A stretch of 64,000 nt of DNA from contig CATNEN010000038.1 in the NCBI GenBank assembly GCA_950097015.1, positions 14,818,001 through 14,882,000 of the forward strand, written 5' to 3'. Below are positions 32,053 to 56,739 of the stretch, one piece after another. Under the pieces are notes generated by a model. It was not told the DNA's origin, did no database searches, and was given only the letters and a program-made list of their open reading frames with translations. Both the position numbers and the translations under genes were made by a program. Positions within the stretch are counted from its first letter, which is position 1; each line of letters begins with the position of its first letter. Source of the DNA: Macrostomum hystrix (lineage: Eukaryota > Animalia > Platyhelminthes).

Positions 32053-32556
32053 ATGAGCAGCGCACAGCCTAATCAACAGACTTTCCGACATCACCGCGTA
32101 TTTTTTCCGGTTCACGTTTATCTTCACTATACTGACACTCTGGACTATGCTGAAAAAGCGCTGGAAATTCGGCACAAACTCATACACAGCGATCTATTTC
32201 CGTTTCCCATTACTTTTACACCTGTGCAAGCCTCCGGTCCGGACGTTGACTTAAACATATTCGATGTGTACGTGATCGGCGGTCATCGACAATACAGATT
32301 CGGCATCGATCAAGAGGGCCGGTTGCCAAGCCTAGCAGAGATTATCGACACAATCGGATGGGCTTCCGTGCGATCTCGCGAACCAATGCAGCGCTCGTTG
32401 GTGATGACCACATCCACCATGGATACGGCGTCAATTTTTGAGCACCTGTTCCAGTCAAACACGGAGTATAATAGATCAGACACAGACGGCCCTGACGAGG
32501 CTGTGACCATGGCCGAAAAAGCTCATCTTCAGAATCGTCAAGATTTGCAAAATTAA
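32053..32556 (+). CDS. Unassigned 167-aa ORF
   Basis: ATG start, protein-like composition, AATAAA ~75 nt downstream; no recognisable motif. Confidence 0.35.
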   Translation: MSSAQPNQQTFRHHRVFFPVHVYLHYTDTLDYAEKALEIRHKLIHSDLFPFPITFTPVQASGPDVDLNIFDVYVIGGHRQYRFGIDQEGRLPSLAEIIDTIGWASVRSREPMQRSLVMTTSTMDTASIFEHLFQSNTEYNRSDTDGPDEAVTMAEKAHLQNRQDLQN

Positions 32557-33009
32557 ACTATACATATGCGAGTATGCTGCAGAAAGGCAATCTAGCTGTC
32601 TAACTTTTCTAGAAGAGATCATCATTATACAATAAAAATGACTCCCAGGAGCGATTATAGTTCTACGAGCTATAGCATTCTTTGAAAAATACATTTATTC
32701 TTGCATTTATGCTTACTAACCAACTTTAATGCTCTACGCAGTTCTCTCCTTCTTTTCGTGGTCTAGTGCTGAATTTTAATATAATTTCTTTCTTTTCGAC
32801 GTCTTTCCACCGGGACTACAATTATGCAAATTACTCATATATTACACCATAGTACGCAGACTTGACTTCACTTAGCGTCAGCCGAGCACGTATGCAGCGA
32901 AGAGGCGGAGGGAACCGCCACTTTCACTAGTTCCAGAAGACCCTCGTGAGGTTGTTTTGCTCTAGTGGACCCGTCGGTGGGGAAGAAGTCGGATCACCCG
33001 GTGTCCCTG

Positions 33010-33515
33010 AGTAGTATAAAAAAATATGAAACAAACGCGTTTTCCTTATGGAGAAATACATAGGTAGTACCGCATAGGAAATGCCTATACATTTAACTCA
33101 AAACGCACCAAAAATTTTCTAAGTCCTAACTCGCACGAGGAATTTTTCTAAGTCAAAGTCTATCTCTCTCTCTTCTCTCTCTCTCTCTATCTCTGTCCTT
33201 GGCATGTTGTTAAAAAATTCCAAGTCCAAGCTAACTGCTCGTTTAGTGTGCAGATAAGAATTCAGAGACACGCTAACAATCTGAAATGCTATGTTGATAT
33301 GTTGAATCTGATATGTTGAATCAGTTTTATTTAAAGCTACCACTAGCGAGAGTTGCTGCACACAGACTTAGTGTCATTGTCACACTAACTTGACAAAATA
33401 TTCTATCACAAATTAATGTTTCTGTCTTATTCATCAGATTCGGTACGAAGCTTTTTGTTGAAACAGAAATTTTTATTTAATTCCACACGCGGTATCATAT
33501 GACACATGCTAAAAT
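33010..33515 (+). repeat. Left terminal inverted repeat
   Basis: First 73 bp identical to the reverse complement of the right end; similarity decays inward to ~33450-33515; internal (CT)n tract. Confidence 0.9.
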
Positions 33516-33630
33516 ATTGTCGAACCAACTAGCCATAAAATAATTCAAGACTTGCTTTTGAAGCATCGCACCATTTTATGCATCTCTTAATGCACTTACA
33601 GTATACTTAAACCGTTAACATGACCAACAG

Positions 33631-34200
33631 TCACAGATAATGAATTAAAACTCGTAAAACAAAAGATCGCAGTTTAACATAGGCTTTTCGGAAAGAATCA
33701 CTTCGCGAGACATTGCGCTTAGAAATACTCTTTAGAAAGACGTGCAGATTTTTTCGAATAGTCAATTTATAAAAGACATAAAATACAGCCCAAAAGCCAC
33801 AGCTACCGCTTCGAGGGTCTTGAACAGCAAAGCGAGTATAACTCCAATTTCTTGCCCCACCACATTGTATTCCTAACCAACGTGCCACAGATGCAATCGG
33901 ATGGAGTCCAAGTGAATCGAAATATTCTCCATATCTTTTACCCTGTCGACCTGCATAGGACGTATTTCCATGCACCCAAACACAAACCCAATGTTTTCCA
34001 GGTAGATTAGAAGTGTCTGTGTTTACAATAAAAAAATAATCCTTTTCATTAAGTGGAAGATGCTTAATACTTAATACAAAATCTTGGGGGAATACTCCTA
34101 AGAAGACAGCATGCGAAAAATAAGCGCACAGTTTTGTAGCAATAGACCGAAGAAATCGATCTGTAACACCGTTTTGTAGAATAGAATCAATTACTTCCAT
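33631..34200 (-). CDS. Adenain-like cysteine maturation protease (PRO)
   Basis: IVNTD...GKHWV, YFDSLG and VQ..SGSCGFW give the H/D/Q/C catalytic set. Confidence 0.92.
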   Translation of the reverse strand: MEVIDSILQNGVTDRFLRSIATKLCAYFSHAVFLGVFPQDFVLSIKHLPLNEKDYFFIVNTDTSNLPGKHWVCVWVHGNTSYAGRQGKRYGEYFDSLGLHPIASVARWLGIQCGGARNWSYTRFAVQDPRSGSCGFWAVFYVFYKLTIRKNLHVFLKSISKRNVSRSDSFRKAYVKLRSFVLRVLIHYL

Positions 34201-35513
34201 GCAGTTCCAGGAACAACGTCACGAAGCTCAGTTAGTTGCAATTGCTTGTCAAAAATTCCTCCAAATATGACGTTGTACACAGTGCTAGTTGCAGAACTGA
34301 ATCGCAGCTCAATTTTCACATTTCCTTCCTTATACAGTTGAACACCATGTCCGATACCTGGTTCACTACCGAGACTAAAGGCAAAAATAGAGTATCCATT
34401 CGCATATTCACCCATAGTGAAACCAATGTCACGTCCTTGCAGATAAAGACCCAGTTGCTGTAGAAGAAAAGTATACTCTGTCACACAGTCACCTTCAAAG
34501 TTGGTTTGCAGCGGTCGACATGGCATTGACTCTCCATTTACAAACACACCGATGCTGTTAACGTTAGCATGCTCAAAGTTGAATGGATTCGTGTCCATGC
34601 TTCCATTGAATGCTCGGTTATTTACAAAAGCTAATAATAAAAGCCGTGGAACTCCACTTGGGAATAAATTCTCGTGCGTGTGGCTGGATGATCCGCGAGG
34701 AATAGTAAATGTTCCCATGCTTAGACTCCGGTGGGGATATAGAGCATTGTGGCTTTTCAGACCATGTGCATGAGCACTAGTAACGCTAGGTGATGGTTGG
34801 ACAAGTCGCAGTCGTAATTCTGCTCGCAAGAACCTAATTTCATAATCTTTAAGTTGCACATCGCTTCCTATTGATGCACCACTCAAAACAAATTTGCTTT
34901 TTGCTGGTGTTAATTTGATACGCATTGGTGTCTTTGAAAGTAGATATCGCGGTTGACGAAAAAGATCTAAAAATAGAGGACCAGACACTGTACAATGTCG
35001 ATTTTCAGCAATCAACGATCGCCTCTTCGTTCGTCCTTCGTTATCGTTTGTTGAATTCATTTTACCAGCAGTATCTTTGTAGAAACCCCAAGGCACCAGA
35101 CCTGACTTCTGTGCTGTGTGTCCATACTCAAGAAGTGTTAGAAGCATTGCCTTGTAGGGATACATGAAGCTTCCACCTTCAACAACAGTGTCTCCAATAG
35201 TAAATTGCACATCTTCAAACAATGTTGCGATTGCTAAGTTGTTTACACACACATAGTTTTTTGCAGCATCAATTGCGTTACCTTCTCCGTCGCTGACGCG
35301 GAAGCTAACTGTTAGCACAGTATCATGCAGATCTAAATACAGATCTCCAGGCGGTACAATCTCAAACTCGATTGGAGAACCTTTTGTTATCCCATGTTGT
35401 GGTTGAATGTCTGTGTAGCGACTTTCTAAAACACTGAATTGAACAGGTGTCTGGTCAAAGAGAGAGAGTTCGCTTTTCAATGCAGCAATGTCGGGACCGA
35501 GAAGTTGATTCAT
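34191..35513 (-). CDS. Major capsid protein (double jelly-roll, PY/hexon-like)
   Basis: 440 aa; KSELSLF..TPVQ, PIEFEI..YLDL, LDLFRQPRYL, NPFNFEH and YANGYSIFAF are typical Polinton PY motifs. Confidence 0.9.
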   Translation of the reverse strand: MNQLLGPDIAALKSELSLFDQTPVQFSVLESRYTDIQPQHGITKGSPIEFEIVPPGDLYLDLHDTVLTVSFRVSDGEGNAIDAAKNYVCVNNLAIATLFEDVQFTIGDTVVEGGSFMYPYKAMLLTLLEYGHTAQKSGLVPWGFYKDTAGKMNSTNDNEGRTKRRSLIAENRHCTVSGPLFLDLFRQPRYLLSKTPMRIKLTPAKSKFVLSGASIGSDVQLKDYEIRFLRAELRLRLVQPSPSVTSAHAHGLKSHNALYPHRSLSMGTFTIPRGSSSHTHENLFPSGVPRLLLLAFVNNRAFNGSMDTNPFNFEHANVNSIGVFVNGESMPCRPLQTNFEGDCVTEYTFLLQQLGLYLQGRDIGFTMGEYANGYSIFAFSLGSEPGIGHGVQLYKEGNVKIELRFSSATSTVYNVIFGGIFDKQLQLTELRDVVPGTAWK

Positions 35514-35514
35514 G

Positions 35515-35949
35515 TTATTTTCCGAATAAACTAAAAAGCTTCTTGCTTGCAGCGGAGTTTTGCTTTCCTCTTCGTTTCTTGACTCTGTAGGTACTTCGTC
35601 CTCCTCGTCGTCTTGTTACACCTCGTTTTTTTCCTTTACGTCTTAAGCTTATAGGTCTAGCTGCTCTCTTTCGTCGCTTGTTGGTTAAGGTAGGCGTGTC
35701 AAACATGTCTTCTTCAGAAGTTGAGTTCGCGTGCCGCTTGCGCCCCATACCGATTTTGCTGGCAGCGCTTTTAAAATAATCTAGGCTGCGATCCAGAAGA
35801 TCCTTTTTAGCATTACGTATTACAGGAAATAGCAGTCTTTCAGCCAAGTTTGATAGGAATCCGTATCCTTCGTAGACGGGGATTGCAGATGCTCCTCGTC
35901 CACCGATTGAATTATTTGGACCGGAATAGAAGGCGAATATCGGATCCAT
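35515..35949 (-). CDS. Virion core precursor: protease sites, amphipathic helix, R/K-rich tail
   Basis: PVYEGYG|FLSNLAERLLFPVIR amphipathic segment; IGMG|RKR; protamine-like C-terminus; immediately upstream of MCP as in other Polintons. Confidence 0.7.
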   Translation of the reverse strand: MDPIFAFYSGPNNSIGGRGASAIPVYEGYGFLSNLAERLLFPVIRNAKKDLLDRSLDYFKSAASKIGMGRKRHANSTSEEDMFDTPTLTNKRRKRAARPISLRRKGKKRGVTRRRGGRSTYRVKKRRGKQNSAASKKLFSLFGK

Positions 35950-35982
35950 GACTTATTATTAAGCGATATCAGTTTTTCAGCT

Positions 35983-37134
35983 TTACTTATACACACGAGC
36001 AAACAGTCTAGCAGTCTTTGCATCGAGATCTTTTTCACTCAGCCACTGACTCCGTGAAATTGGCATGTCTTTCCACTTTACTAAATACAAACGATTACCC
36101 TTCTGCGAACGATCTGTTTCGAGAACCTTTTCTATATCGACAGGTTCCTCATCCACTTCATTCACGAGTAGAAGTTCATCCTCGTTGAATCTTCCTTCTA
36201 GCAAATCGAAATTATCTTCTGAATCAGCTAATTCATACATTGGCGGGTCAGACAGGTGAACATGATGAACACGAAACTTTGAATTGCTCCAAATTGTTGT
36301 GTAACCCTTTTCAAAAATTCCTCGTCGTCGGAGAATTCGCACCCAATCACCAACTTTGAATTTTGGTTTTGAAGTGCGCACTTGTGTAAACATTTTGTCC
36401 CATAGAATTCCTTGAAGATGTTCATCATTCTCTACTCGTTTCGGTGTTTCTCCACTTAAAGCTCGATGTGGACTTGCGTTGAAATTTTTCTCCAACTGTG
36501 GCAATATGTCAAACCAACGTGCTAGATTCTTAGCTCGAAAGTATCGTTGCAGGCGTTCTTTTAGAGATCGAATAAATCTTTCTGCCAGGCTAGCCTTGTA
36601 GGAACTTTGAGAAACGAAAAACCTCACTCCCTCCTGTTTTAGCATTTGTCGCGTTGATTTTCCAAGAAACTCCATGCCTGCGTCGCCTTGTAAATAAACT
36701 GGTTTGAAGCCACTTCGAAAAATATCTTGCAGCACTCGACTCACTTCGCTAGGTTTCTTTGTCTTTAATGGCCTAAGTCGAATGCTTCGCGTGAAGCAGT
36801 CAATTAGAACTAGTATGAAACGATAACCTCGATTTTCAGTTTTATACTGCGGCAGGTCGGCTAAATCGATTTGAAACTGGAATCGTGCCACGGGTGGTAC
36901 ACTAATTTTTGGTGTCAGAAATTTTTTAGGCAACTTTTGAAATAAATGGTGCTCTTTTGTTGATCGTACCCAACTTTGTACTTCCTTTCGTGCGTCTTCA
37001 TATTTTATCTGTGGAAATTCTTTGCGCACAGCACGAACAAGTTCAGATCTATTACCTGAGAACGAAGTCGGATTTTCCAAGTTGAAGAAAGAATCAGATA
37101 GAAACTGAGCAATACTTTTACGTATTCCTTGCAT
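35983..37134 (-). CDS. Retroviral-type (RVE) integrase with C-terminal chromodomain
   Basis: QIDLAD / LQGDAGMEF / LAERFIRSLK DDE triad; FKVGDWVRI..FEKGY; IEKVL...YLVKWKD...SQWL. Confidence 0.95.
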   Translation of the reverse strand: MQGIRKSIAQFLSDSFFNLENPTSFSGNRSELVRAVRKEFPQIKYEDARKEVQSWVRSTKEHHLFQKLPKKFLTPKISVPPVARFQFQIDLADLPQYKTENRGYRFILVLIDCFTRSIRLRPLKTKKPSEVSRVLQDIFRSGFKPVYLQGDAGMEFLGKSTRQMLKQEGVRFFVSQSSYKASLAERFIRSLKERLQRYFRAKNLARWFDILPQLEKNFNASPHRALSGETPKRVENDEHLQGILWDKMFTQVRTSKPKFKVGDWVRILRRRGIFEKGYTTIWSNSKFRVHHVHLSDPPMYELADSEDNFDLLEGRFNEDELLLVNEVDEEPVDIEKVLETDRSQKGNRLYLVKWKDMPISRSQWLSEKDLDAKTARLFARVYK

Positions 37135-37363
37135 TGATTGTATTGCAGCAAATGAAGCTTACGTCGATAACTGAATCACCGTCGGTTGTCTCGCTTTCAA
37201 AGCAGGAGTTAAATATGAGCGGACAGCAAGTTTCTAGCTGCAAATAATCAAAGAAACTCTGCAACAAAACTCTTAGGTTTGAACAGGTCATGACTTACAA
37301 ATTTATTAATTATCAAGTGTCAATAATGCATTATACCATACAATAATTAAAAGCACGCTTATA

Positions 37364-38482
37364 CTAAACATCTCTCTGATAATTTTCAAGCAGACTTAAA
37401 TCTTCGAGGTTCACCTCAGGTTCCTCAGCAATGGCAGTCTCAAACTCCTTTCGCACATGACGACCGACTTGGCTAGCTGTAACGCCTCGTTTCCGAAGAA
37501 ATTCAAGGAAATGTTGAAGACCGATTGGAGGTTCTTTTTCGTTTCGCTTTAGCGGTTTATCACGAACAATATATTCCATTAAATCTTGAATTTCATTTTC
37601 AGAAAAATCTTCGGGTAGAGGTTCCAACGATGAATCGTTTGAGAATAGATTTTTAGCGAGTCTATCCAGCCGAGAGCGGAAAGCCTTAGGAATTTGCATT
37701 CGATCTTGCATTTCGAATTGACTTGAAAAACTTTCGCGAACAGGTGCTGGTCTTTCCACTCCAGTGTGGTAGACTCTATGTGACTTTAACAATTTACTCT
37801 CCAAGTCAGATCTTTTCAGTTGAGCTGTAGAGGAGGGCTGCTTTTCAATTACATCATCTAGAGCATCAATTTCTTCTCGCATTGAAACTATATTCTTTGC
37901 TAGTACATCTCGCGGTGTCTCCAGAGCATCTGTTTTACGTACTAAGCTGCTTGATAGTATTTCGTCCTGTCTCTGTTGCATTGATTGATACATGCTTTCA
38001 GGAATCAGAAACATTCGCTGTAGTTCATTCGCATTTCGAGACTGCATGTTTAGTTTTTTTCGCTGAATTGCTCTAACTAAGTTTGCTGCACCGGCGGCAG
38101 TTCCAACAACACCAGAAGTAATTCCTAACGCTGTGCCTATAGCAGGTAGAGCGGCAATGATAGGAGCCAAGAACGGTAAAAACCCACCGTGCTGTACAAG
38201 GATTCTTCTTTTCTCACCAAGTGGAGTCTCTCTTTTTAATAGCTTTTTGATATACTTGCTATGTTTCTCAAGCCGGGTCTTGTTGCAGGAACTCACTTGA
38301 ACACGTCCGTTGACAATGTTTAGCAGAAACTCCACTAGACAGCGAATCTCTGCTTCTGTTAGAGTTTTCAAAAAGCTTTTTCGATGTTTTGGATTTCTCA
38401 GACGGCTTACAGCTTGTAAAACAAATGCACACTGAGATAGCGACTGAGCACTTCGCTTTATGTTTTCAGTAATGTTAGTCAT
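37364..38482 (-). CDS. Conserved Polinton QxGG|FL virion protein fused in frame to a second conserved ORF (internal Met146 at 38047)
   Basis: RCLVEFLLNIVNG..KRRILVQHGGFLPFLAPII motif; second part begins MQSRNANELQRMFLIP and ends PPIGLQHFLEFL. Confidence 0.7.
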   Translation of the reverse strand: MTNITENIKRSAQSLSQCAFVLQAVSRLRNPKHRKSFLKTLTEAEIRCLVEFLLNIVNGRVQVSSCNKTRLEKHSKYIKKLLKRETPLGEKRRILVQHGGFLPFLAPIIAALPAIGTALGITSGVVGTAAGAANLVRAIQRKKLNMQSRNANELQRMFLIPESMYQSMQQRQDEILSSSLVRKTDALETPRDVLAKNIVSMREEIDALDDVIEKQPSSTAQLKRSDLESKLLKSHRVYHTGVERPAPVRESFSSQFEMQDRMQIPKAFRSRLDRLAKNLFSNDSSLEPLPEDFSENEIQDLMEYIVRDKPLKRNEKEPPIGLQHFLEFLRKRGVTASQVGRHVRKEFETAIAEEPEVNLEDLSLLENYQRDV

Positions 38483-38519
38483 GGCAAGAAATGAGCTTCT
38501 TTTAGAAATTCACATTTGC

Positions 38520-39518
38520 TTATATACCATCAGACCGCAGACGAAAATGAAGCACGACAACTACATGCGCCTCCGAATGAAAATTGAATTCCTGTCCACG
38601 CTGATCCGAAAGGCGAATACCAATCTCACTTATTCGCTGACGATTGGTTTTTAGGTAATATGACTTTTGGAATGTGCTGCTTTCGCGAGTAAGTTCGCCG
38701 TCCTTCTTTTGCTGAAGTTCCACTACACGGAGCAATTGGACTGCAGTGCTTCCAACAGCCTGATGTTCGATTATATCGGTATAGCAGTACATGTAAACTG
38801 TTTTTGATGAAATTGGACGAGTCAAATTACTATCCAAGTAGGTCTTTTTGAAACACCACAATCGTCTAGCTCGCCAATATCGGAGCATATGAAATATTGC
38901 ATTATCATCACTAGTACTTATCAGTTCGACATCGTCTGAAACGAGTCGCATTGCCTGGCCAGGAAGAAGAATAAAATAGAATGTAAAAAATTGATCCGAA
39001 GGAATTACCAGAGACTTTACGGAATTCTTAATAAGATCTTTATAATTCCCATCTGCCGGTTGAAAACTTGCGTTTGTAGGCTCCGTTGAAAGGTCAGACG
39101 TTAGAGTCGTTATTATCTTCCAAGAGTTGAACTGATAGGTATCCATAAATGCGGCGGGTAGCTCAATTCCAAGCGCTTTTTCGCCAGCATTGCGCAGAAA
39201 CCATGAAAACCTTTCTATTGATCCAGCAGCTCGCCAAGAAACGTAGGCTTCCAAATCAGCCTCAGCCCAAATACGTTTCCAAATAGGAACAGACGATGCA
39301 AAAATTGGTTCAACATTAACATAGTATGGAACTTCAAATTGTCTTTCTCGATGAGCATTCGGTGTTGTATTTGCTCCACGACAGAGTAACTCTACTAGAG
39401 CAACTTCGTACAAACCAGCTGACAAGTTGAGTGGCTCAGCCAATCTTATTCGAAAATAATTCGGAGAATTATCTGAATAGCTAGTATCGTTCGAAGGTAA
39501 TGTTACGTAGAAGCTCAT
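38520..39518 (-). CDS. Minor capsid/penton protein (single jelly-roll, PX)
   Basis: MSFYVTLPSN..FRIRLAEPLNL..YEVALVEL N-half; MYCYTDIIE.Q.VG....LLRVV..I.IRLSDQ.G..LHFR C-half; likely ATG at 39518. Confidence 0.88.
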   Translation of the reverse strand: MSFYVTLPSNDTSYSDNSPNYFRIRLAEPLNLSAGLYEVALVELLCRGANTTPNAHRERQFEVPYYVNVEPIFASSVPIWKRIWAEADLEAYVSWRAAGSIERFSWFLRNAGEKALGIELPAAFMDTYQFNSWKIITTLTSDLSTEPTNASFQPADGNYKDLIKNSVKSLVIPSDQFFTFYFILLPGQAMRLVSDDVELISTSDDNAIFHMLRYWRARRLWCFKKTYLDSNLTRPISSKTVYMYCYTDIIEHQAVGSTAVQLLRVVELQQKKDGELTRESSTFQKSYYLKTNRQRISEIGIRLSDQRGQEFNFHSEAHVVVVLHFRLRSDGI

Positions 39519-39564
39519 TTTCAAAAATAAGTTTATGCGCGAAAATATTAATCAAGCGTACAAA

Positions 39565-40269
39565 TCAAAAATCGCTTATAGCGTTTGAAACACCAGCTTC
39601 GGAAGAACGTATGTATACAATATGACAATCACCAGGAAAAATACCTGTGCGAAGTCGTAAAAAATCTGGCGTTTTTTGACGCAAATCGATGAACAAATAG
39701 GAGTATGGCTTATTATTTGTTACATCTTCATATACATTTACTAAAAACCGACTATTGCGTGGAAACATTTGCCGAGCTAGATGCTCAACTGATGCACGAT
39801 CTCGAACACTACGAGTTAGGCAAATATAACTAGCTGATAAACTTCGCGTACGCGCCTCAGGATCTGATCGATTAAAGAGGTTCTGACAAATATAAAGACA
39901 CGTGAGTGGTGTATGATGGGCAAGCTTTGTAAACAGGCTAGTAAACTCAGCAGACTTCGTCACTTCACTTTGCAGGTCATCAACGACAACTAGATCGTTT
40001 GGCTTAAACCGAGAAGCCAGTTGAGCTGGAAATCCATTTACGAAATGAACAGGTTCATCTCCAGATTTATTCCAACACTTGATTATTCGTTGCTGATCGT
40101 CGGAAGTTAGGTTTGTACCATGACACCAAAGAAGACGCTGAGGTTTCTTATCAAATAGCTTATCTCGTTCACTTAGCAATCTAAGTGTCCATTCAGTTTT
40201 TCCAGAGTTAGACGGCCCCGCAATAATGAATGTTGAATCGTGAGCCAACTGCATGTTGAAAATTTCCAT
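39565..40269 (-). CDS. FtsK/A32-like DNA packaging ATPase
   Basis: Walker A GPSNSGKT, Walker B LVVVDD, LFTK..HH, ICQNLF, YSYLFIDL. Confidence 0.95.
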   Translation of the reverse strand: MEIFNMQLAHDSTFIIAGPSNSGKTEWTLRLLSERDKLFDKKPQRLLWCHGTNLTSDDQQRIIKCWNKSGDEPVHFVNGFPAQLASRFKPNDLVVVDDLQSEVTKSAEFTSLFTKLAHHTPLTCLYICQNLFNRSDPEARTRSLSASYICLTRSVRDRASVEHLARQMFPRNSRFLVNVYEDVTNNKPYSYLFIDLRQKTPDFLRLRTGIFPGDCHIVYIRSSEAGVSNAISDF

Positions 40270-40271
40270 TT

Positions 40272-40688
40272 CTAAGCACCAAAGCGTTGCTTCACCTGCA
40301 TAACTTTAGTTACAAGTTTGGCAGCTAGTTTCTCACTCCAACTTGTGGACGGATCGTTAGCAATTTCACGTGCTCCTGATTCTAGCACCTGGTCAGCCTT
40401 TAATCTTTCTTGAACGTCAGAATGTTGATCGTACGCTATGTCGTGAAGCATGCACAGATTATCAAGTCTATTTTTACCTCGTTGACCCTTTGTAAGTCTC
40501 TCTTGTAACTTCGTTCCTGGACCGCAAAACTGATATCCGCCAGGTAAATGTGCCTCAAACGGCAAATGATTGATTAACCAGTTCAGTACGCCGAAACCTC
40601 GCTGCTTCTTAATCGAGTTACTTGATCTCTTGATTTGAAATGATGACTTTCTTAAACTCTTAGCTGATCTTTTCTTACTACGTGCCAT
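40272..40688 (-). CDS. Parvovirus-type phospholipase A2 virion protein
   Basis: HLPGGYQFCGPGT (Ca loop), LDNLCMLHDIAY (HD catalytic), R.KAD; basic leader ending QRGFG. Confidence 0.92.
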   Translation of the reverse strand: MARSKKRSAKSLRKSSFQIKRSSNSIKKQRGFGVLNWLINHLPFEAHLPGGYQFCGPGTKLQERLTKGQRGKNRLDNLCMLHDIAYDQHSDVQERLKADQVLESGAREIANDPSTSWSEKLAAKLVTKVMQVKQRFGA

Positions 40689-40823
40689 TCTGGAGATTTT
40701 AAATTACCAACAAATTCCGAATTAGCTTATAGTGTATTAACAAAAACAAGAAAAAGAACAAGATTAACATCAAGAATATAATAATTGGAGACAAAAATAT
40801 GATTAGTGTCATTATTCGCAGCG

Positions 40824-41282
40824 CTAAAAGTTGTCAGTGCTACCAAACCCACCATACTTGCGCTTGAGTGACGGTTCAGTCATGTGACAGACTGACTCAT
40901 CCTCTAAAACTAAAACAGGTACAATGCTTGCTTTCTCTAAAATTAGTTGAGCAATGCGCAGTCCGGGGTAAAAATTAAAGTCATTTGGACTGTGATTGTA
41001 CAACACAACCATTATTTCGCCCGTGTAATCCGGATCAACTACACCACCTTCAACAGTGATGCCTCTTGTGCTGAGGCTGGAGCGCGTAGCGATTCTCCCG
41101 TAGGTGTCCTTTGGTACTTGAATCGATACGCCTGTTCGAATCGTTAGGCGATCGTAGCCTCCAACACTTCCCTCGACAGCAGCAGTCAGATCATAGCCAA
41201 CTGAGCCTTCAGTTTTGCGAACTGGAACATTAGCTGTTGGCAGAAGAAGCCTCACACGCAGGACGTTGCTATCAGTTGCCAT
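40824..41282 (-). CDS. dut: Trimeric dUTPase
   Basis: All five motifs present: GYDL, RSS, GVVDPDYTG, AQL, RKYGGFGST. Confidence 0.95.
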   Translation of the reverse strand: MATDSNVLRVRLLLPTANVPVRKTEGSVGYDLTAAVEGSVGGYDRLTIRTGVSIQVPKDTYGRIATRSSLSTRGITVEGGVVDPDYTGEIMVVLYNHSPNDFNFYPGLRIAQLILEKASIVPVLVLEDESVCHMTEPSLKRKYGGFGSTDNF

Positions 41283-41622
41283 TGCAGAACTTTAGAGCTG
41301 AGGGGAAAATGGTTGTTAGCGTTTTACAAAGTAGTATAACTAAATCCTGATTATAATCTATTTATTATCTCCAAAAACTTGCTAGTGATTGTGATATACC
41401 TAAGCTAAGTACTACAAAAATTAACTAAAGATAAATACACAAACTTGGATTATATAAATACTTATAATGTCACCAATATAATTACAACATTCAAATGTAA
41501 TCATAATTTGATCAATGTCTATATTGACAAGAATGAAATACAAATCACAAAAAGGAAAAATCATTTGATATGATTAAAGCGAAAGTCAACATTGGGTGAT
41601 GTAATTACAGCAATCAATATAA

Positions 41623-44600: not shown

Positions 44601-45762
44601 GATTCAAATTCTTGACTGGCATGTAATGTCCAAACGCAAATTGTCCGTAACGCGGTACAAACAAGCAATTGGCAAAATACCTATCACCTTCACTGTTGCT
44701 TCGATGTGAAAAGAAGAGAGTATTAGTCTTTTCTTCATGATTCCAGACAAAGACACGGAGACTAAGCTTAGGATTCTTGCGGCAAAACTTTCTATACGAT
44801 GATTTGGAATGCCTAGCTGGTCCATTTGCGAATCGGCCAAAGTTGAACTCTCCCTGCCACTGCGCATAGCTCGACTTTTTACTTGGGTTCGTTGTGTAAG
44901 GATGAAACACACTCGCGATAATAGCCCAACGAAAACAATCCAACTGATTAGCTCTGTGCGGCTTCAAGTACAAGACTGCACCAGTCTTTCGGCCAATAGA
45001 AATCGGTACCTTGAAGGCTTGTCGTTTCGGGTCGGATCGGGTCGGTTCGGTTCGGAACGGGTCGCCACGCGCGCGCCCGCCCGCCCGCCCGCCCGCCGCC
45101 CTCGCGGCGGGCCCCCCGCCGGCTCCTCCGCCACCTCCAAGCTCGGTTGAATTGATTAATCGAGCTCTGGTTTTGCGGTAAATGCATAGCATTAGATCAA
45201 GTTGTTCAATGTGCTCAAATTGCCAGTTACTACCGCGTGTTTGGAAGTTGTCAATTTTTGTTACTAGAGTGGAGATTACGCGCGAAAACCAGTCATTGAA
45301 TGCATCTGGTGATAGAGTCAAGTCACTATTTGCCATTGTCGTCTCGTCAAATGTTATTGTTGCCATATTGGTGTTAAAGTAGGCAGAAATTGTTTCGATA
45401 CTCTCACCATCTTCTGACTTTGGACGAGATAACTTCACTTTCAGATGGACACAGGTTCGCAGCATTAGACCGGCTGAACCAATCTTTTCAAAGAGGTTGT
45501 ATATCGGTTCTCGAAGATTGGCAATCAGTTCGCTAGGTAGTCGCTGTTGTTGCTGTGGTCTGAATTCGACAAAGTTGACACGTCCCTTGTGGCTTGATTC
45601 GCGTAGCACAACAGACCAATCATTGGGAGGATTGTTAGTCAGACGGTTAATAGGTGCAGAGAGCAGGTTTTCAGGCGCAAAGCACTCGCCATGCGAGTGT
45701 GCATGCAGTTCCGCCTGACCGCTGAAAACGCGTTGGCAAACATTGCACCTTGCTCGAGGCAT
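41623..45762 (-). CDS. Protein-primed DNA polymerase B with N-terminal Zn finger/terminal protein, OTU-like and EndoVII/HNH modules
   Basis: Exo YADMEC, FHNLASYD; pol YLDANSLY, KLLNNALFGK, GDTDS, CKGV; CQLC...DHCHLTG.PRG..CVSCN (EndoVII); DCFRWA/GHY (OTU-like Cys/His). Confidence 0.96.
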   Translation of the reverse strand: MPRARCNVCQRVFSGQAELHAHSHGECFAPENLLSAPINRLTNNPPNDWSVVLRESSHKGRVNFVEFRPQQQQRLPSELIANLREPIYNLFEKIGSAGLMLRTCVHLKVKLSRPKSEDGESIETISAYFNTNMATITFDETTMANSDLTLSPDAFNDWFSRVISTLVTKIDNFQTRGSNWQFEHIEQLDLMLCIYRKTRARLINSTELGGGGGAGGGPAARAAGGRAGGRARGDPFRTEPTRSDPKRQAFKVPISIGRKTGAVLYLKPHRANQLDCFRWAIIASVFHPYTTNPSKKSSYAQWQGEFNFGRFANGPARHSKSSYRKFCRKNPKLSLRVFVWNHEEKTNTLFFSHRSNSEGDRYFANCLFVPRYGQFAFGHYMPVKNLNRLMSTRSKQRRFCSDCLVSFPCITSWDYILNVHSCVNNNNEKSTAIEEWTSDVVPQIRETKYKPVERMPREEDAHVKFKSFEAQLPSLYVMYADMECLCAPPDKHQAGNVLEVHEPICLAYRLVTCPELKLTPRLKAAVGMSREKPCEVIYTPPNGENCVRQFLRRLETIASEICLHTQSESYTPLLRKYLHLSKSKAEIAACQLCKKSFEEDEKKVLDHCHLTGLPRGVLCVSCNRKLTLRRYRLIVYFHNLASYDGKFLVREIYEVFSGSKVQLHVLPENRERFKTFSLKFRVKAADQTHKFEICFKDTFAYLSTSLSTLADRLLPEQLVHTRELMNAYPRLKFSTLRQKGVYPYSFLDCEEKLDSVTSLPPKACFFNKLTMSDCLDVDYERAHAAWFEFDCKNLRDYTTAYLQLDVLLLCDVFENFRQTAQREYGLDPSHFLGAPMFSLVACLRQIDRPIQLFTDASMYAEVEHSIRGGFSFGTRHITTANNPCVEECRSILDQTEADFSNMRQNAPRDTYLAYLDANSLYSSCMIQPLPVGDFAWLSRSDLSAIPFDSPSADYFENSTVKSRLLNWLVNYCKEDQGAMLTVDLYYPHFLHDSTADLPLAIAHEMIAEERLTDQMKADWFSLQRELNPERYKNATCYEDVKPFKSPTRKLIGSVQHKLNYVVHHRALRFYLELGMRVTRVHRVIRFTELAILKTYIERNIDQRKAAKTEFEREFFKLLNNALFGKFLQRVRDRLIYRMCSLAERFECYIGSANFLDAIVYTESLAGVSLASKRVMLDKPIIIGAAILDIAKTLVYEFFYNHVQSHRSLASARVLGGDTDSLMLALVMRRNNETPYETLFKDLAEQGLLDTSNYPPSHPLYSTVNKGRLLAWKDEFKGRVPLELAFLRPKNYSFLVTGESITQISRCKGVCKTVAQNIRHTDYLRVLHKRQVMFARMQSIRSRKQRVFLLQQRKLALSFFDTKRAWINDYSSLPFGHWRL

Positions 45763-45961
45763 TTGATCATTATGGCTGTAATTAAATGAGTAGGTTAATA
45801 GTTAATGAGTGAATAGAAAAAAAAAAATTGAAATGTGTAATTGTTTTACAAACTAGGTATAAAAGTTTTTTTAAAAAAAAAAACGAGAGGAAGGATAATA
45901 GATACTTTGTTTTTAAATGAAAGAAATATTGTTGGTTTAAAGGGTTTATTTGATTAACAGA

Positions 45962-46687
45962 TTAACAGATTGATTGCAGCGCGTGTTTAAGAAGACTGAG
46001 CACGAATTGCAAATCTTTTTCTCCTCGTACACCCATAATGACAAATTTTTTTGAAAAAAATATGTTACAAAAAAGCCTAGGATTAGAAATTGATCGAATT
46101 GAAACTGCTTGAGGAAAGTTTTCAACATCGTATGATATTTTATAGTTTGAGTGATGACCGATCATTGATTTTAGCAGCTGAAAACAGTTATTTGGCCAAT
46201 AAAAATCATCAATAAAACCTACATAGGTACTGGTTTGAAGTCTGATTGAGTCGAAATCTATTGCGTAAAGGTTATCATTAATAAAGCGTAAAGCACAAAT
46301 TAATTGCCAATTTGACAAGCAACCAAATATTGAAATTTTGCCACTCGGATAAAACTGAACAGTTAGATTGGAAAAGCACGTCTTTAGCATAGTTGGTCTG
46401 TTTCGAAATAATTTGCAAGCACAACCTTTTGATTGTAAAATTAACTCGATTAGCTTCAAATCGAAATTCTCACATTGGCTAGGATTTAGAAGACTGGCGC
46501 TAAATATTAGGAGAACAAGCCGCTGGAAACAGTAAGGAAGGACTTGTGAAAATGGGCTTTCAGTTTTATCGGCTAATAAAAAAATTGGAATAACCGAGTG
46601 GCGTGCGAAATAATTAAGACCTATACGAGCGTATGGATGGTAAAATAATAAAAATACAAATAATGAAGTTATTCTGCAAAGAGTCAC
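45962..46687 (-). CDS. Divergent TATA-binding-protein (TBP)-like protein; true 5' end probably spliced
   Basis: Two TBP-repeat-like halves: FDLKLI...TVQFYPSGKISIFGC and SYDVENFPQAVSIR...FCNIFFSKKFVIMGVRGEKDL (compare TBP ALIFSSGKMVCTGA and YEPELFPGLIYR..LIFVSGKVVLTGAK); no in-frame ATG before the domain. Confidence 0.7.
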   Translation of the reverse strand: MTLCRITSLFVFLLFYHPYARIGLNYFARHSVIPIFLLADKTESPFSQVLPYCFQRLVLLIFSASLLNPSQCENFDLKLIELILQSKGCACKLFRNRPTMLKTCFSNLTVQFYPSGKISIFGCLSNWQLICALRFINDNLYAIDFDSIRLQTSTYVGFIDDFYWPNNCFQLLKSMIGHHSNYKISYDVENFPQAVSIRSISNPRLFCNIFFSKKFVIMGVRGEKDLQFVLSLLKHALQSIC

Positions 46688-46696
46688 AATAATGAT

Positions 46697-48023
46697 TTAC
46701 TCATCTGAAGACAATGAATCAGTAGAGTCGGAGTCGGTGTCGTCTAAGTTCGACGCCACTCGGTTTCCTTCTTGCGGCGCACTCACCAAAGCCTTGGCTG
46801 GTGGCGATTGAATCCAATCGATATTGTCAGTAGCCGTCTTTGATCGCTTATTTGTCTTGATTGCGGGGCTGGTAACCGGTTTGGAACGTTTCTTCGCAGC
46901 AGGCTTCTTGGTTGGTGATGGGCTTCGAGCGGGAACGTGACCTTTCTGCTTGTTGGCTGGGTTTGGTGAAGCGACTCTGGATGAAGAAGAGCTTCTGTGC
47001 TCACCAATCGCAGTCTTGATATGCTGATGCACTAAACTCAACATGCTGTTATCGGGAGTCGGACGAGTCTCCTTAATCAAAATTATCGAACGCACACACA
47101 AGGTTAACCTCCACGTGATGCTACCTTTCGGAGAGAAAAGACTCACTCCTTGAAGCGAGACTAGATATTTTCCGCTCAAACCCTTGAAGTCGGCCAGTGG
47201 AACTTCGACTCCGTCAGGATTTGCTTCATTCACCATGAAGGTGGCGCACGGGTATGCTGCCTTGATTGTGATCCACTGCTGCTGCCTATTATTCAGCACC
47301 TCTTCATCTGACAATGTCTTCGTTAGTCGCACTAGCGTTCGTGCATCGCCAATTTCACGCAGTTTAGCTTCGAGACCTCTTTCGATAACTCTGGATAAAA
47401 AGAGAGGATTAAAATCCAAGTTAGACGTTGCTTGAGTTTAGGAAAAAATTATTCGCTAGATAAAAAAGCTGCAGCAATTTACAAAATTATAACCTGTACA
47501 CTTGTATGCTGGTTGAATTGAAGGTAAATATTAGTTGTAGGGAGAACAAACTCTAGTTCCATTCAGAGTGGATGCATAATAAACCATTAAATGCATAATT
47601 TAATTTCGTGTCTTAGTTTTGTTGCTTAGACTCTATAATTTGGCTATAAGAACTATGAGGTAGGTTACTATTGACAAATACAAGCTTTATGAGGAAATGT
47701 AAAACACATAATTATACTCACCGAAGGCAGTCGACTAAATCCTGATCACAACACTCCTTTCTAAACGTTATGCCGATGACATCGCGTGAGTCATACTTGC
47801 TAGCTGTCTCGTATTCCGGTCGCTCGGTGATGCCTCGAAGTAGCTCAACTGGACCGGCGGACTGGAAGATGATCGGGCGCCAGCCCTTTGCCTCTGCAAG
47901 ATCTGACTTCCAACCAACCGATCGAAACAGACACGAACCGTTGACTGGCGACTCAATCTCGCCAATGTGGAAGATAGGTCTCATGTTAGGCTTTAGCAGT
48001 GATTCGGCTGCGTAGTAAGACAT
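46697..48023 (-). CDS. Spliced 331-aa protein, join(48023..47722,47390..46697); putative ssDNA-binding protein
   Basis: Donor CG|GTGAGT (47721) and acceptor ctaac..ctctttttatccag|A (47391) are both phase 2 and restore frame; beta-rich core, basic NLS-like linker, acidic tail DDTDSDSTDSLSSDE. Confidence 0.7.
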
Positions 48024-48093
48024 TCTTGCTGCTAGCTGGTGTAGTGATTAGAAAGCCGAGGAGCTTATGAAAAGACCAAAATTTTGAAACTTG

Positions 48094-48101
48094 TATTTAT
48101 A
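48094..48101 (-). promoter_or_regulatory. Canonical TATA box (TATAAATA) upstream of the SSB-like gene
   Basis: ctataaata ~70-78 nt upstream of ATG 48023. Confidence 0.55.
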
Positions 48102-48808
48102 GAAGCGAATCGAACACGAATCACCTGCTGATAGTAACTGCACGATGCTTTTATGATAGAAATTAAACTAATTTGTTTACAAGTCAAAGTCATTAAGGAA
48201 ATTATAGTCAATTGTTGAAGCTCATCTATTGATAGCAACTGCACGAAGCTTTTTATGTGGAAACTAATTTAATTTGCTATAGGTTAAAATGTAATTTGAG
48301 TCAACAGTTGAAAGTAATTTTGACGGCACGTAGCAATGATAAGATTTGATTGCATAGGTATAGAGCTTTAATTATTGAATTTCATCATTCGGTAAACATC
48401 ACAAGTGAAAAATTTGAATAGTATAAATCTTTGTAGCTAGATTTTCTTGACTTTGAAGGGTTAATTAAATACACGTACTGCCTTAAAAGAAGCTTGTGGG
48501 TTTTCAGTAACATGATATTTTACTAAGTTAGCGAGAACGGTGTGTGGGAGGGAGAACTTAGATCTTAGTTTACTAAATTAATTTTTATAATGAACTGAAG
48601 CATACTGATTAAGCATATAGTTGTTGACGATAAAATGTTTGATATACTAGTCGAAAACATAATTTTAAATTATACGAGTTTTTTCGATTTCAGTTTTAAG
48701 TCGGTACGTTTATAGTAAACAGATTGGCTTTAGTCCCCTTTAGATATACATAGCTAGGTTAAGATATTACGAGCGTTGTTTCGGTTTAATTTTAGATAAT
48801 TTAGCAAA

Positions 48809-49299
48809 ATGGTTTCTCAAACACAAAGCTTAGTTTTAAATAATTTATTGACAAGCCACGCTAGAATTACACAACAAAATAGTCTATCTATTGGCAACCT
48901 TGTTAGAGGTTTAGTTTTAGTGCAGCAATCGCTTGACTCTATCAAGCTTGCAATTATCTTTTTGATGATAGCTATAACTTTACTAACTTTAGGATTAATT
49001 GTAATCATGATTCGACGTGTTAGACGTAATACTTCAACTTGTATATCAGAAGAAGGACAAGCTGGAGCTATGTAAGTATTGATTAAATAAATGCTTCTGC
49101 TGTATAAATCGGTTAATAAACTCTTTAGATTAAATAATATCCCCCATATTTGACTTTTAGAACCGACTGTTCGACTCTAGAAGTAAACAATGGGCAGGTA
49201 CATTCAATTACAATGACGCCACTTCAAGTAGCAATGTCAACACCAAAACCTGTCCTACTGATGAGCACCACTGAAGAGTCTGATGCAACTCTTGTCTAG
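48809..49299 (+). CDS. Spliced 133-aa single-pass membrane protein, join(48809..49071,49161..49299)
   Basis: TM segment LAIIFLMIAITLLTLGLIVIMI followed by RRVRR; AT|GTAAGT donor and ttttag|A acceptor in frame; ends ESDATLV*; AATAAA ~49426. Confidence 0.65.
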
Positions 49300-49965
49300 A
49301 CTTTAAGGTTTTTGTCAAGTGTAACAATATTTTTCATAGTGTCTATAAGATCAGTCTGATCACTACTTTAATTGATATATGTGAGCATGTGTGTGTGTGT
49401 GTGTGTGTGTATACATTTGCATTTAAATAAAGCGCAAGTTATTTTTATTAATAGGTATCTCATTGATTTTCAATGAATTATTGGTGTGTAATACAGGTAG
49501 TAGATTTTACTTAGTTTCATATTATTTCTATATCTCTGCATTTTTGTTTGAGCATCATTTATTTTTCATTTAGTGTATACAATGTAAAAAGTTTAAGTTT
49601 CATTATCATTCGTCTGATCTCTTGAAATACAGTAGCTTATCAATGATGACTGTTTAGGTAGGTCTGTCTTGAGAGTACTGTTAATGTGCTACAATTTTAT
49701 CTTAGGTTTAGCTTCTTATTCTTTCTTTAGGACTAGCATTTGATTAAAAGTAAAATTTGATCATTGATTTGCATACTTAAAAATGTTTTCTTTTGTAACA
49801 GACTAAAGCGAAAATATATTTTGTTAGTACAAGTATGTTTTGAGCAGAAAGAAAATCTTTTTTTTTGTATTGAGGTAAAGCATAAATATATTTACAGACT
49901 TCGATAAAATACAGTTATTGAGTCAATGCAAAATTATAAAAATGTTGATTTTTGTCATTTCTTCA

Positions 49966-50277
49966 TTAGTTAAGCTGTGACTGGATACTCAGCCAGGCTT
50001 CGACTTGGAATTCTAGTCGGCTACGCCACCAGGTTAGTCGTGTCGAGGCCCATGTCCTGACTTGTCGAGCTGCACTGCGTATTACACACTTCAGCCAGTA
50101 GCCGCGATTTCTTGTTGCAGATATCGTGTCCTCGGGCCAGCTCTCCTCGATGAAGCTTTCTAGCTCAGTTAAGAGCTTGACGAGTTGCACCCATTTACGA
50201 TTATTCATCTCCGTCTGATGAATTATAGATTGCTGGCTTCGCATTATCCCGACGATAGGAAGGTTGACAGAATTCAT
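49966..50277 (-). CDS. Hypothetical 103-aa Polinton protein
   Basis: ATG ORF in AT-rich context next to the right TIR, TATA-rich upstream. Confidence 0.45.
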   Translation of the reverse strand: MNSVNLPIVGIMRSQQSIIHQTEMNNRKWVQLVKLLTELESFIEESWPEDTISATRNRGYWLKCVIRSAARQVRTWASTRLTWWRSRLEFQVEAWLSIQSQLN

Positions 50278-50419
50278 TTCAATTCAAATCAATTCAATTC
50301 AATTCAATATCAATTCAATTCCTTGCTAATTCCAGCTTGAAGTTGTAGTTTGTCTTATAATCCTTGAAATATATATACTATCGGTAAATGGTAGGCACGT
50401 TTGAAGAGATGTGTGATTT

Positions 50420-50876
50420 TTAGCATGTGCGAAATTAAAGACAAATTGCTGCAGGAATGAAAAGCTTCGTGCTGAATCTGATGAATAAGAAAGTAACAAC
50501 ATTTTGTGACTGAATGATTTGGCGAGTTAGTGTAACAATCTCAATAATTCGACGTGCATTAACTCTCGACAGTGGCAACTTGCAATGAAACTGATTCAAC
50601 ATGCTCGTTTCAGAAAGTTGCTGCGTCTTTGAATTCTAACCTGCAAACTTAATGAGCAGTTAGTTGGACTAGGAATTTTTTAAACAACATGCCAAGGACA
50701 GATAGAGAAGAGAGAGAGAGAGAGAGATTTTTGACTTAGAAAATTCCTCGTGCGAGTTAGGACTTAGAAATTTTTTGGAGCGTTTTGAGTTAAATGTATA
50801 GGTATTTCCTATGCGGTACTACCTATGTATTTCTCCATAAGGAAAACGCGTTTGTTTCATATTTTTTTATACTACT
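50420..50876 (-). repeat. Right terminal inverted repeat
   Basis: Reverse complement of 33010-~33515. Confidence 0.9.
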
Positions 50877-52559
50877 TCCCTGAGGTACCGGGCGAGAAGC
50901 TGGATGCTCTCGGGCCTGCAAACGTATGTAGAGATTTTGTCGAAGTTATTTTATCAATGCATGCCCTCGTAAAGACTGGGCAACGACAGAAAAAAGTGTT
51001 ACGCATTTTCACGAAGGACTGCAGGGCAGAAAAGACACAGCTCCATGGAATCTGGGCCCGGAAGAAGAGGCGAAAACAAAAGCAGCTGAGTCCTAAAAAA
51101 GACCATATATATACTGACTGCTTTGACGTCCCTGACGTCCCTGAGAGCTGACGGCGGCCCTAGACTGCACTGGCGACTGTTCTGGGTTTTGGACCACGAA
51201 CCACAGCTCCTGGTGTTTGGATTTTATCCAGATCGCGCCTTACTACTCGTGTACTAGATGGGATCGGGGCCTTGACTCCCGGGCCGGTCCGGGAGCCTTC
51301 TCGTTTCTCAGCCGTGAAGCCCCCCGCGCATGCCCTTGGAGGAGAGCCTGTTAAGTTGACGGTTGCAATCTAGGGTGATTTTGGAGTTGGTAGAAGGACC
51401 AACGAAAGCCTTGAGGGAAGCCCATGACTATCAGAATGAAAAAAAAGATCTTCCGCCCAGAAATCCCTCTTCTCTGGTGCATCTCTGCCGCGCTGAAACA
51501 GATGGTGAGCATCTCCGTTCTGAAAAACACTAGCTGGAATCGTGCCGGCATTGCATTAGAGACGAAAGACCTCGCCAAGTGTAAAGGCCGAAGATGCCGT
51601 TCATCATATGGAGCCATCAGTACAACGACTGAATGTCTAGGGTCTATACGAAATTTTACTGCTACAGACCGCCAACAGACGTCAATAGACCGTCAACAGA
51701 CGTCACGTACACAAACCTATTAAAGAATAACATATAGACTCGAAGCGTGTCGACTTCCCATCATTTCCGGTAAATTCTACTTTATGCAGCAACAATGGAG
51801 CGATTAATTTAAAGAAATTAGCTGGCAGTCGATCTGCAGCACTGTTGGACGCTTTCAACAGTTTCTAGCGCATCTGGTTGATTTTATAAGGCCGTATTTG
51901 GAGACAGTGCGCAAAAAAGACATAATTGTCAACTGCATCCTGCAGACTGTGGCGATTTTTATTGGGTTTTTATAGCCACTGGAGCGCAAAAACTGTACTT
52001 GCGGAGAAAAATGCGCCATTTTCCATTGCTGGATACAGACGCGCAACAACTATTATAAGAGTCTGGCGTCGACCAAAATGAAATTTTCCCAAAGAATCTT
52101 CTATTCAACGCTCAATTAACGACACCATCCCTCGGTAGCCGTGCTTTTCTTAAATGAGATCGTCTTGCAGTGGCTTGCATCTATTTTAGAGTTCGAAATT
52201 AATACAATTTAATCTCCATCTATTACTTAAGGAATTAATACTCAGAATGTTTTCGTTTATATTTTTTACGGATTTAAACCATGTATTGGATATTGAAATT
52301 AACAAATTACATTGGCAGTTTTTGCAAAGTAAGATTTTAAAGGTGAAGAAATTATTTATAACAACATTTTAAAAACATTTGTATTTGTATACAGCTTATA
52401 TAAAATACATTGTAAAATGTTTACTATGATTGCTTTATTTTATTTAACAGGTTCATTTTTACACGAAATAAAATAAATAACATTCATTTGCTTATATTGT
52501 TTAGTTTTTTAGTCCTCAATTTTTTGCCAAAAACAACTCAATTATTTTGCGAATCTATT

Positions 52560-56571: not shown

Positions 56572-56739
56572 CTTGCTGGAAGGCAATGGTGTGTGCTAAG
56601 GACATGACAGATTGACACAAGCGGTCCTTGATTTTTTCCAATTTTAACCACGATCTTTTCCAAGCGGCATCGTCCATTTCAAACGAAATTTAAGTAAAGG
56701 ACGAACTAAAATTAAGGAATAGACTAGATTACTCGAGTG

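Follow-up and report, generated by a model that had tools for sequence, protein, structure and literature searches.

A complete, probably recently inserted Polinton with spliced genes in Macrostomum hystrix may encode its own TBP for expression of its virion and integrase genes

The 64,000-nt stretch of Macrostomum hystrix DNA analyzed here (GenBank assembly GCA_950097015.1, contig CATNEN010000038.1, positions 14,818,001 to 14,882,000 of the forward strand; the window) contains a 17,867-bp element at window positions 33010-50876 that is almost certainly a Polinton (Maverick/adintovirus). It carries the Polinton hallmark genes for protein-primed DNA polymerase B (pPolB), integrase, double-jelly-roll capsid protein, packaging ATPase and protease, it makes spliced transcripts, it has a real TATAAG box upstream of its virion and integrase genes, and it contains a gene for a protein resembling the TATA-binding protein (TBP). 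Combining these data, we lean towards a model in which this is a complete, recently inserted and spliced Polinton that switches on its virion and integrase genes by means of a self-encoded TBP. To the complete and apparently recent endogenous Polinton described in an earlier note on this DNA, the analysis adds the TBP-like gene, two introns and a promoter-like box common to several genes.

The element has the termini AGTAGT and ACTACT and is flanked on either side by the exact 6-bp target-site duplication TCCCTG; by simple arithmetic, an exact 6-base match at ends that are set independently by the inverted repeat is expected by chance about once in 4,000. The two termini are identical over exactly 73 bases, and in the terminal inverted repeat the identity per 50 columns drops inward from 100% to 96, 92, 88 and 84% and then to 54-82%, a pattern that frequent correction of the outermost bases alone would account for. 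Polintons are described as measuring 13-25 kb, ending in inverted repeats of 100-1500 bp and having target-site duplications of 5-8 bp (available text of bioRxiv 10.1101/2023.08.22.554363; PMC9683012), and the 17,867 bp, approximately 480 bp and 6 bp found here lie within these ranges. From what is known of the family, the integrase would have made the 6-bp duplication on insertion. The coding share of the element is approximately 74%, and comparison of the 64,000-nt window with the element found no further pieces of it. The earlier note had placed the element at 33004..50882, which is correct with both target duplications counted in, and its exact 6-bp duplication and 73 identical terminal bases are borne out, the full repeat being longer (approximately 480 bp, approximately 82% identity). 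Its nearly one-stranded gene order also holds: eleven long open reading frames (ORFs) that start with ATG, the first being the protease and the last the TBP-like gene, and a further, spliced gene are on the minus strand, and a single gene is on the plus strand. Completeness is supported by the ends, the target duplication, the gene set, the catalytic motifs and the capsid fold. The claim that all core ORFs are open stands for the eleven long ORFs but not in full, in that a 372-aa ORF joins two genes and copies differ in frame.

Catalytic motifs, matched by script to the patterns expected for these families, were found in pPolB, the integrase, the ATPase, the protease, a phospholipase A2 (PLA2) and a dUTPase. 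As relatives we used the best 80 of 383 loci from a metagenome scan, many of them short contigs. Next to the capsid gene, 36 of the 80 loci have an ATPase homolog and 70 a protease homolog; integrase homologs occur in 50 and pPolB homologs in 19, and homologs of PLA2 and dUTPase are absent from the 80. The profile of the major capsid protein had no sequence match in the PDB, and its identity was settled by a fold search: the top Foldseek match of the AlphaFold2 model (pLDDT 90.7) is the Sputnik capsid protein 3j26 (E 5.5e-17, TM 0.67). It has 101 homologs, the best at 68-69% identity and the named ones from animal genomes; virion proteins of such a type are seemingly confined to animals, as far as the available text of PMC8502044 goes. 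Taken together, these two points indicate that the host is likely an animal. For the integrase, Pfam gives rve at E 4.6e-7 (30.5 bits, just under the cut-off of 32.6) and Chromo at E 3.3e-6, for the protease weak matches to C5/C48 under the cut-off (E 0.04-0.05), and for the ATPase weak P-loop matches only. The polymerase has an endonuclease VII-like insert (PF02945, E 8e-10) and, by pattern only, vOTU-like motifs with Cys at residue 276 and His at approximately residue 379, with no OTU catalytic match in Pfam. The penton candidate matches nothing in Pfam or PHROG, and its label is our assumption from terminal motifs; likewise, we take the 144-aa basic protein, from its position, to be cupiennin-like. 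Scans of viral_contigs gave no matches.

Transcripts and copies were followed in assembled contigs of eight runs (X1-X8) of one organism, from two studies, which were picked using positions 41000-50900. No run is on record as RNA, and contigs are unable to show absence or to rank genes; we take X3 and X4 to be complementary DNA because they have spliced joints, loose ends that look like adapters and a poly(A) end, and X5-X8 because of their spliced joints. Two GT-AG introns were found spliced in contigs from the two studies. The intron at 47391-47721 was first predicted from the sequence and the joint was then seen in X5 and X4 (two of the eight runs, one per study), with a contig of the DNA-like run X2 unspliced; splicing joins two ORFs in frame to give a 331-aa protein. 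The intron at 49072-49160 is spliced in five of the eight runs and in both studies, namely in X5-X8 (short side of the joint 214-255 letters) and X3 (23 letters). This second intron lies in the sole plus-strand gene, whose 133-aa product is predicted by hydropathy to have a single membrane helix, with a basic patch after it, and for which no homolog was found by Pfam, by PHROG or in the 80 loci. Two AATAAA signals (49086, 49115) lie inside this intron, and both an 88-aa and a 133-aa form may be made. In X4, the joint 48463-49557 does not have GT-AG ends, which led us to discard its reading as a leader intron; it more likely is a deletion in another copy. The contigs of X4 cover 29 of 30 bins, where DNA carry-over is possible, and X5-X8 are without cover over the capsid, penton and protease genes and X3 almost so, which we do not use as evidence.

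The second exon of the 331-aa protein has no Pfam, PHROG or homolog match. Its feature look-alikes in the Atlas are DUF5871 and DUF2738 clusters from large DNA viruses (score 0.90-0.94; families on 10-29% of the cluster members), and exon 1 has weak Atlas matches only. We assume for DUF2738 and DUF5871 a T7-type viral role in binding single-stranded DNA. Both domains are listed in Polinton-like viruses in the available text of 10.1101/2022.07.28.501842. The 331-aa protein may thus be similar to single-stranded-DNA-binding proteins (SSB-like), which we treat as a lead only.

Homology of the TBP-like protein begins 44 codons before the first ATG, from which an upstream exon or a non-ATG start is inferred. 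The frame matches Pfam PF00352 (E 2e-7, 31 bits versus a cut-off of 22.9), a profile of this protein with 14 relatives matches both repeats of solved TBPs (E 8.7e-24), and the structural model (pLDDT 77.7) has the two-repeat saddle fold and matches TBP structures (E 2.7e-8, TM approximately 0.55) at approximately 20% identity to solved TBPs. HMMER found six homologs, four of them at 41-47% identity; a word-index search found none. Given that TBP-like ORFs are present in 18 of the 80 related loci, by a profile that was built without the window and that gives the window frame E 8.3e-11, the gene is a trait of the lineage. In two close homologs a Gln directly precedes the core, as an in-frame reading across the acceptor would give, at the protein level only. 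In-frame donors are present at 46786 and 47146, of which the former could permit a fusion between the SSB-like gene and the TBP domain. Of the nine AATAAA signals on the coding strand, eight are located outside minus-strand ORFs. The stretch from the SSB-like gene to the end of the TBP-like gene has none, the first one past the SSB-like gene coming after the TBP-like stop (45950). From this arrangement, the SSB-like and TBP-like genes likely belong to a common, alternatively spliced early unit. In three distant Polintons (L041, L068, L011) a TBP-like ORF is located on the strand opposite to the capsid gene, downstream of pPolB or penton genes; L041 also has at 446-1213 a 256-aa ORF that looks viral-SSB-like by eye and to which BLAST gave no significant match.

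TATAAG is the top 6-mer upstream of the structural genes. It is found 11 times on the coding strand versus twice on the other, a count of 11 being reached in five of 300 dinucleotide shuffles, and it precedes eight of the nine genes from the dUTPase to the protease, i.e. the virion and integrase block, at 42-229 nt (four at 42-62 nt). A box is present 25-100 nt upstream of five of 13 genes (random placement, p = 0.0002). The remaining boxes comprise two inside pPolB and one before a 103-aa ORF, and the starts of pPolB and of the TBP-like gene lack a TATA-like box within 320 nt. In the relatives (28 clusters when grouped at 85% capsid identity), TTAAGC or TAAGCA, a T-TAAG-C-like box, comes first among the de novo motifs in four of eight TBP-bearing loci, and TATAAA ranks high in three of four loci in which no TBP was seen (L036, L045, L067; probably one lineage). 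A pooled looser motif is present before 22 of 62 ORFs in TBP-bearing loci versus one of 27 in the others (Fisher p = 0.0012). As far as such sequence comparisons go, the tie between the box and the TBP-like protein is suggestive.

A contig of the DNA run X1 over 34190-40636 (6,446 nt) differs from the window by three substitutions and one gap and has a depth of 310, with 88 and 68 for the flank contigs; this approximately fourfold excess suggests about four near-identical copies, where contig depth is not copy number, ploidy or episomes may add to it and X1 is possibly the source of the window itself. Among the 20 of 88 loose ends shown, termini are joined to other flanks at 33008 (X1) and 50876 (X4), by contigs that enter the element by 28 and 30 letters only, the bar for bridging being 31 letters. 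In total, these data suggest that the Polinton was very probably mobile in the recent past. The near-identity to the X1 contig over 6.4 kb, the approximately fourfold depth and the two other flanks favor the recent insertion claimed in the earlier note. Its 73 identical terminal bases say little about age, given that the remaining repeat is approximately 18% diverged. Insertion polymorphism is not borne out, since no empty-site joint is present among the 10 joints listed; in X1, the flank contigs pass through both target duplications without branching. Repeat divergence was discarded as a clock, 18% inner divergence being incompatible with four differences in 6.4 kb; most likely, the inner repeats were already asymmetric before insertion. 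Deleted or rearranged derivatives are present in X1 (joints 41246-47177, 43811-43947 and 44114-44892) and in X5 and X6 (joint 42059-43514), and some copies lack the region 48464-49828 or have other sequence in its place (joints 48463-49557 and 48873-49829). A diverged pPolB piece at 41907-42059 (approximately eight differences in 153 nt) has its own flank in X1, X5, X6 and X8, is joined to 43514 in X5 and X6, and reads as an older, deleted relative. X2 contigs cover 27 of 30 bins and leave both outer flank bins uncovered, a pattern that low-depth repeat DNA fits as well as an episome. Contigs of X5-X8 share approximately 41 nt of the terminal repeat (33048-33088, 50798-50838) with other sequence on both sides, which suggests that this organism also has another, related family of elements or a short non-autonomous derivative.

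By combining these data with previously published data, in which the genome is inserted by the integrase and replicated, in its excised linear form, by a pPolB that has terminal-protein and vOTU domains (available text of PMC11161782; bioRxiv 10.1101/2023.08.22.554363), we suggest the following scheme: (i) host RNA polymerase II would first transcribe the early end with the SSB-like, TBP-like, polymerase and membrane-protein genes, (ii) a message that is probably spliced would give the TBP-like protein, which would then take the place of host TBP at the TATAAG boxes, (iii) this takeover would yield the capsid and core proteins, protease, ATPase, PLA2, dUTPase and integrase, and (iv) the protein-primed pPolB would, by family knowledge, copy the excised linear genome from its terminal repeats. 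By analogy with viral TBP mimics, we on balance favor the proposal that the TBP-like protein drives the late switch through TATAAG. A full nuclear-virus program, i.e. a quiet state with one spliced membrane-protein transcript and an active state in which a private TBP, made by alternative splicing of the early unit, steers host RNA polymerase II to TATAAG late promoters and particles result, is possible but doubtful as a whole.

Several observations weigh against the model. On the side of the TBP-like gene, a spliced joint into the acceptor at 46523 is absent among the joints listed for the X1-X8 contigs, an X4 contig runs unspliced across this acceptor, and a variant found in X3 and X6 carries an indel that shifts the 5' part of the frame. 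At the positions that we take to be those of the four intercalating Phe residues, the protein has Pro at the first and Tyr at the second, with F136 and F155 conserved, and the replacement of the first-repeat Phe belongs to an Arg-Pro that is conserved across Polinton TBP-like proteins. On the side of the box, TATAAG was chosen after all 5-7-mers had been viewed, the ATPase gene lacks a box within 320 nt, and the exact box precedes four of 43 structural genes in TBP-bearing relatives and one of 29 in the others; 18 of the 22 ORFs with the looser motif come from the four loci that shaped it, the five held-out loci giving four of 28, and the loci without a seen TBP may just be too short. As to the copies, the junction contigs fall below the 31-letter bridging bar and contig depth is not a copy count. 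Finally, the 372-aa pX ORF of the window copy is anomalously fused. Its pX-bearing part (Adeno_PX, E 3.3e-5, 24.1 bits with a cut-off of 25) and its second part have homologs that are separate ORFs of 57-161 aa (n = 36) and 223-286 aa (n = 10), none of the six loci having both among the 80 carries them in one ORF, and a frame-changing indel near 38,050 distinguishes X1 and X4, not X2, from the window. Given that the halves are always apart in relatives and that X1 and X4 differ in frame, the fusion reflects a copy-specific state or an assembly error.

Alternatively, this is an ordinary young Polinton, in which host TBP reads the late genes, TATAAG is a tolerated TATA variant one base off TATAAA, and the TBP-like protein is a decoy for host TBP regulators, a repressor or the DNA-binding part of an SSB fusion of the kind that the in-frame donor at 46786 permits. 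The failure of held-out relatives to confirm the box and the replaced intercalating Phe position fit this alternative, as does the lack of a TFIIB-like partner: no TFIIB or cyclin match in Pfam was found among the scanned Polinton ORFs, where a remote homolog could escape. However, no TATAAA is present 20-130 nt before 11 coding-strand ORFs (the exon-1 ORF, outside this set as too short, has one), some relatives without a seen TBP (L036, L045, L067) rank TATAAA high instead, and both TBP repeats are conserved. We therefore regard transcription of the late genes by host TBP as unlikely, and favor a role for the self-encoded TBP.

A further alternative is that the element is a self-synthesizing transposon only in this host, with capsid genes that are intact merely from the youth of the invasion. 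In favor of it, derivatives in X1, X5 and X6 are deleted or rearranged and the pX gene of the window is fused; however, the capsid homologs with 68-69% identity have their full length and a common box is kept upstream of the structural genes, and these two observations argue for selection on the virion module in the lineage. Moreover, insect adintovirus DNA co-purifies with particles, according to the available text of PMC8502044. We consider a transposon without virions quite improbable in this host. Particle formation by some copy is a finely balanced question on which we are slightly doubtful, and the proposal in the earlier note that the element could form virions may hold, judging from its genes, with a modeled capsid of the right fold and a fused pX gene in the window. 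Finally, an insertion that is old and fixed and was retained or domesticated for the spliced membrane-protein gene would fit the approximately 18% diverged inner repeats, the missing empty-site joint with unbranched X1 flanks and the splicing of that gene in five of eight runs, but is highly improbable in the face of intact motifs in all enzymes, the four differences in 6.4 kb to X1, the other flanks at the termini and the deletion or replacement of the membrane-gene region in some copies.

The element is like Polintons/Mavericks in size, terminal inverted repeats, target duplication, pPolB, integrase, protease, ATPase and major and predicted minor capsid proteins; unlike typical Polintons, it adds TBP-like, dUTPase and spliced SSB-like and membrane-protein genes and is nearly all one-stranded with a common TATAAG box. 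It resembles Beta-type adintoviruses in a putative OTU-like PolB motif, rve integrase with chromodomain, pX-bearing core gene and animal-type capsid, and differs from them in a stand-alone PLA2 without pX, which is tied to Alpha modules (available text of PMC8502044; for the similarities also PMC11071296). Motifs and the pX-bearing gene tentatively suggest the Beta class. In the available text of Starrett et al. (PMC8502044), TBP and dUTPase are mentioned in figure legends only, all within the section that covers non-animal datasets, and its supplementary maps may show animal cases.

The TBP mimic of beta- and gamma-herpesviruses acts at TATT late promoters (PMC4893493; PMC12529657, available text). 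As in these viruses, the element encodes a TBP-like protein without an RNA polymerase of its own and has late genes with a non-standard TATA box; unlike the herpesvirus mimic, its protein is a small two-repeat TBP core of approximately 186 aa for which no partner subunits were found, and we use the comparison as a working analogy, not as membership. With cellular TBP (PF00352) the protein shares the two-repeat saddle fold at approximately 20% identity, and it differs from it in the Arg-Pro that replaces the first Phe motif in Polinton proteins and in a core exon without a start codon.

An intact Polinton alone is ordinary, 266 being reported from 29 nematode species (available text of bioRxiv 10.1101/2023.08.22.554363). 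The locus contributes support from sequence runs for splicing and for young, dispersed copies. Our literature search, from which most subscription papers were missing, found no paper on a Polinton TBP with a late promoter or on spliced Polinton genes. Whether animal Polintons are regulated viruses or transposons with leftover capsid genes has been approached with particles that were inferred or seen indirectly (available text of PMC8502044; PMC9683012). The Polinton described here is young, seemingly multi-copy, transcribed and spliced, and offers a TBP-like/TATAAG pair that can be assayed directly; if our model is correct, a herpesvirus-like late switch operates in a 17.9-kb element that is live in an organism with transcriptome data. 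Features of the element are listed in Table 1.

Table 1. Features of the Polinton and its target duplications in window coordinates (for single TATAAG boxes the coordinate is the 5' base)
Feature	Position	Strand	Evidence or remark
Left target-site duplication, TCCCTG	33004..33009		
Left terminal inverted repeat, ~480 bp	33010..33490	+	outer 73 bp equal to right end; ~82% overall
Adenain/Ulp1-like cysteine protease, 189 aa	33631..34200	-	His/Asp/Cys motifs; homologs in 70/80 loci
Major capsid protein, double jelly roll, 440 aa	34191..35513	-	fold model, homologs
Eight TATAAG boxes	34329..41466	-	listed singly below
TATAAG for protease	34334	-	
TATAAG for major capsid	35653	-	
TATAAG for core protein	35991	-	
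TATAAG for integrase	37363	-	
TATAAG for pX ORF	38524	-	
TATAAG for penton	39580	-	
TATAAG for PLA2	40731	-	
TATAAG for dUTPase	41466	-	
Basic predicted core protein, 144 aa	35515..35949	-	weak homologs in L010, L011
Retroviral-like integrase with C-terminal chromodomain, 383 aa	35983..37134	-	DDE motifs, Pfam
372-aa ORF: pX-bearing core gene (~140 aa) and second conserved gene (~230 aa)	37364..38482	-	
Predicted minor capsid protein (penton), 332 aa	38520..39518	-	homologs in 43/80 loci
Packaging ATPase, 234 aa	39565..40269	-	Walker A/B; homologs in 36/80 loci
Parvovirus-type phospholipase A2, 138 aa, predicted entry protein	40272..40688	-	PF08398 E 8.3e-11; motifs
dUTPase, 152 aa	40824..41282	-	Pfam E 4.1e-29
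Protein-primed DNA polymerase B, 1379 aa	41623..45762	-	PF03175 E 5.5e-20; motifs
TBP-like gene, two repeats	45962..46522	-	homology from AG acceptor 46523; first ATG 46390, 44 codons later
Exon 2 of spliced gene (331 aa total), basic linker and acidic tail	46697..47390	-	possible single-stranded-DNA-binding protein
GT-AG intron, 331 nt	47391..47721	-	
Exon 1 of spliced gene	47722..48023	-	canonical TATAAA 78 nt upstream of ATG
Sole plus-strand gene, small predicted membrane protein, 133 aa spliced, 88 aa unspliced	48809..49299	+	intron 49072-49160
103-aa ORF	49966..50277	-	TATAAG 82 nt upstream; no family match
Right terminal inverted repeat	50423..50876	-	
Right target-site duplication, TCCCTG	50877..50882		

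The Polinton is inserted in a frame that is open for approximately 26 codons on the left (32931-33009) and approximately 90 on the right (50877-51151) and that is single-copy in the window, and it may interrupt a small host exon. The neighboring host gene at 32004-32726 looks single-exon (ORF 32053-32556, no Pfam match), has contigs in X3, X4, X6 and X7, and has its poly(A) end at 32726, approximately 280 bp from the insertion. Elsewhere in the window, inverted arms of 448 nt (97%) and 227 nt (94%) at 7136-7787 and 10185-10883 surround approximately 2.4 kb and possibly represent another DNA transposon. Many minisatellite arrays with units of 16-50 nt are found between host exons at 12000-25000 and 56700-63400, and the host exons among them belong to a DnaJ-domain gene with thioredoxin-like motifs and to two MFS transporter genes.

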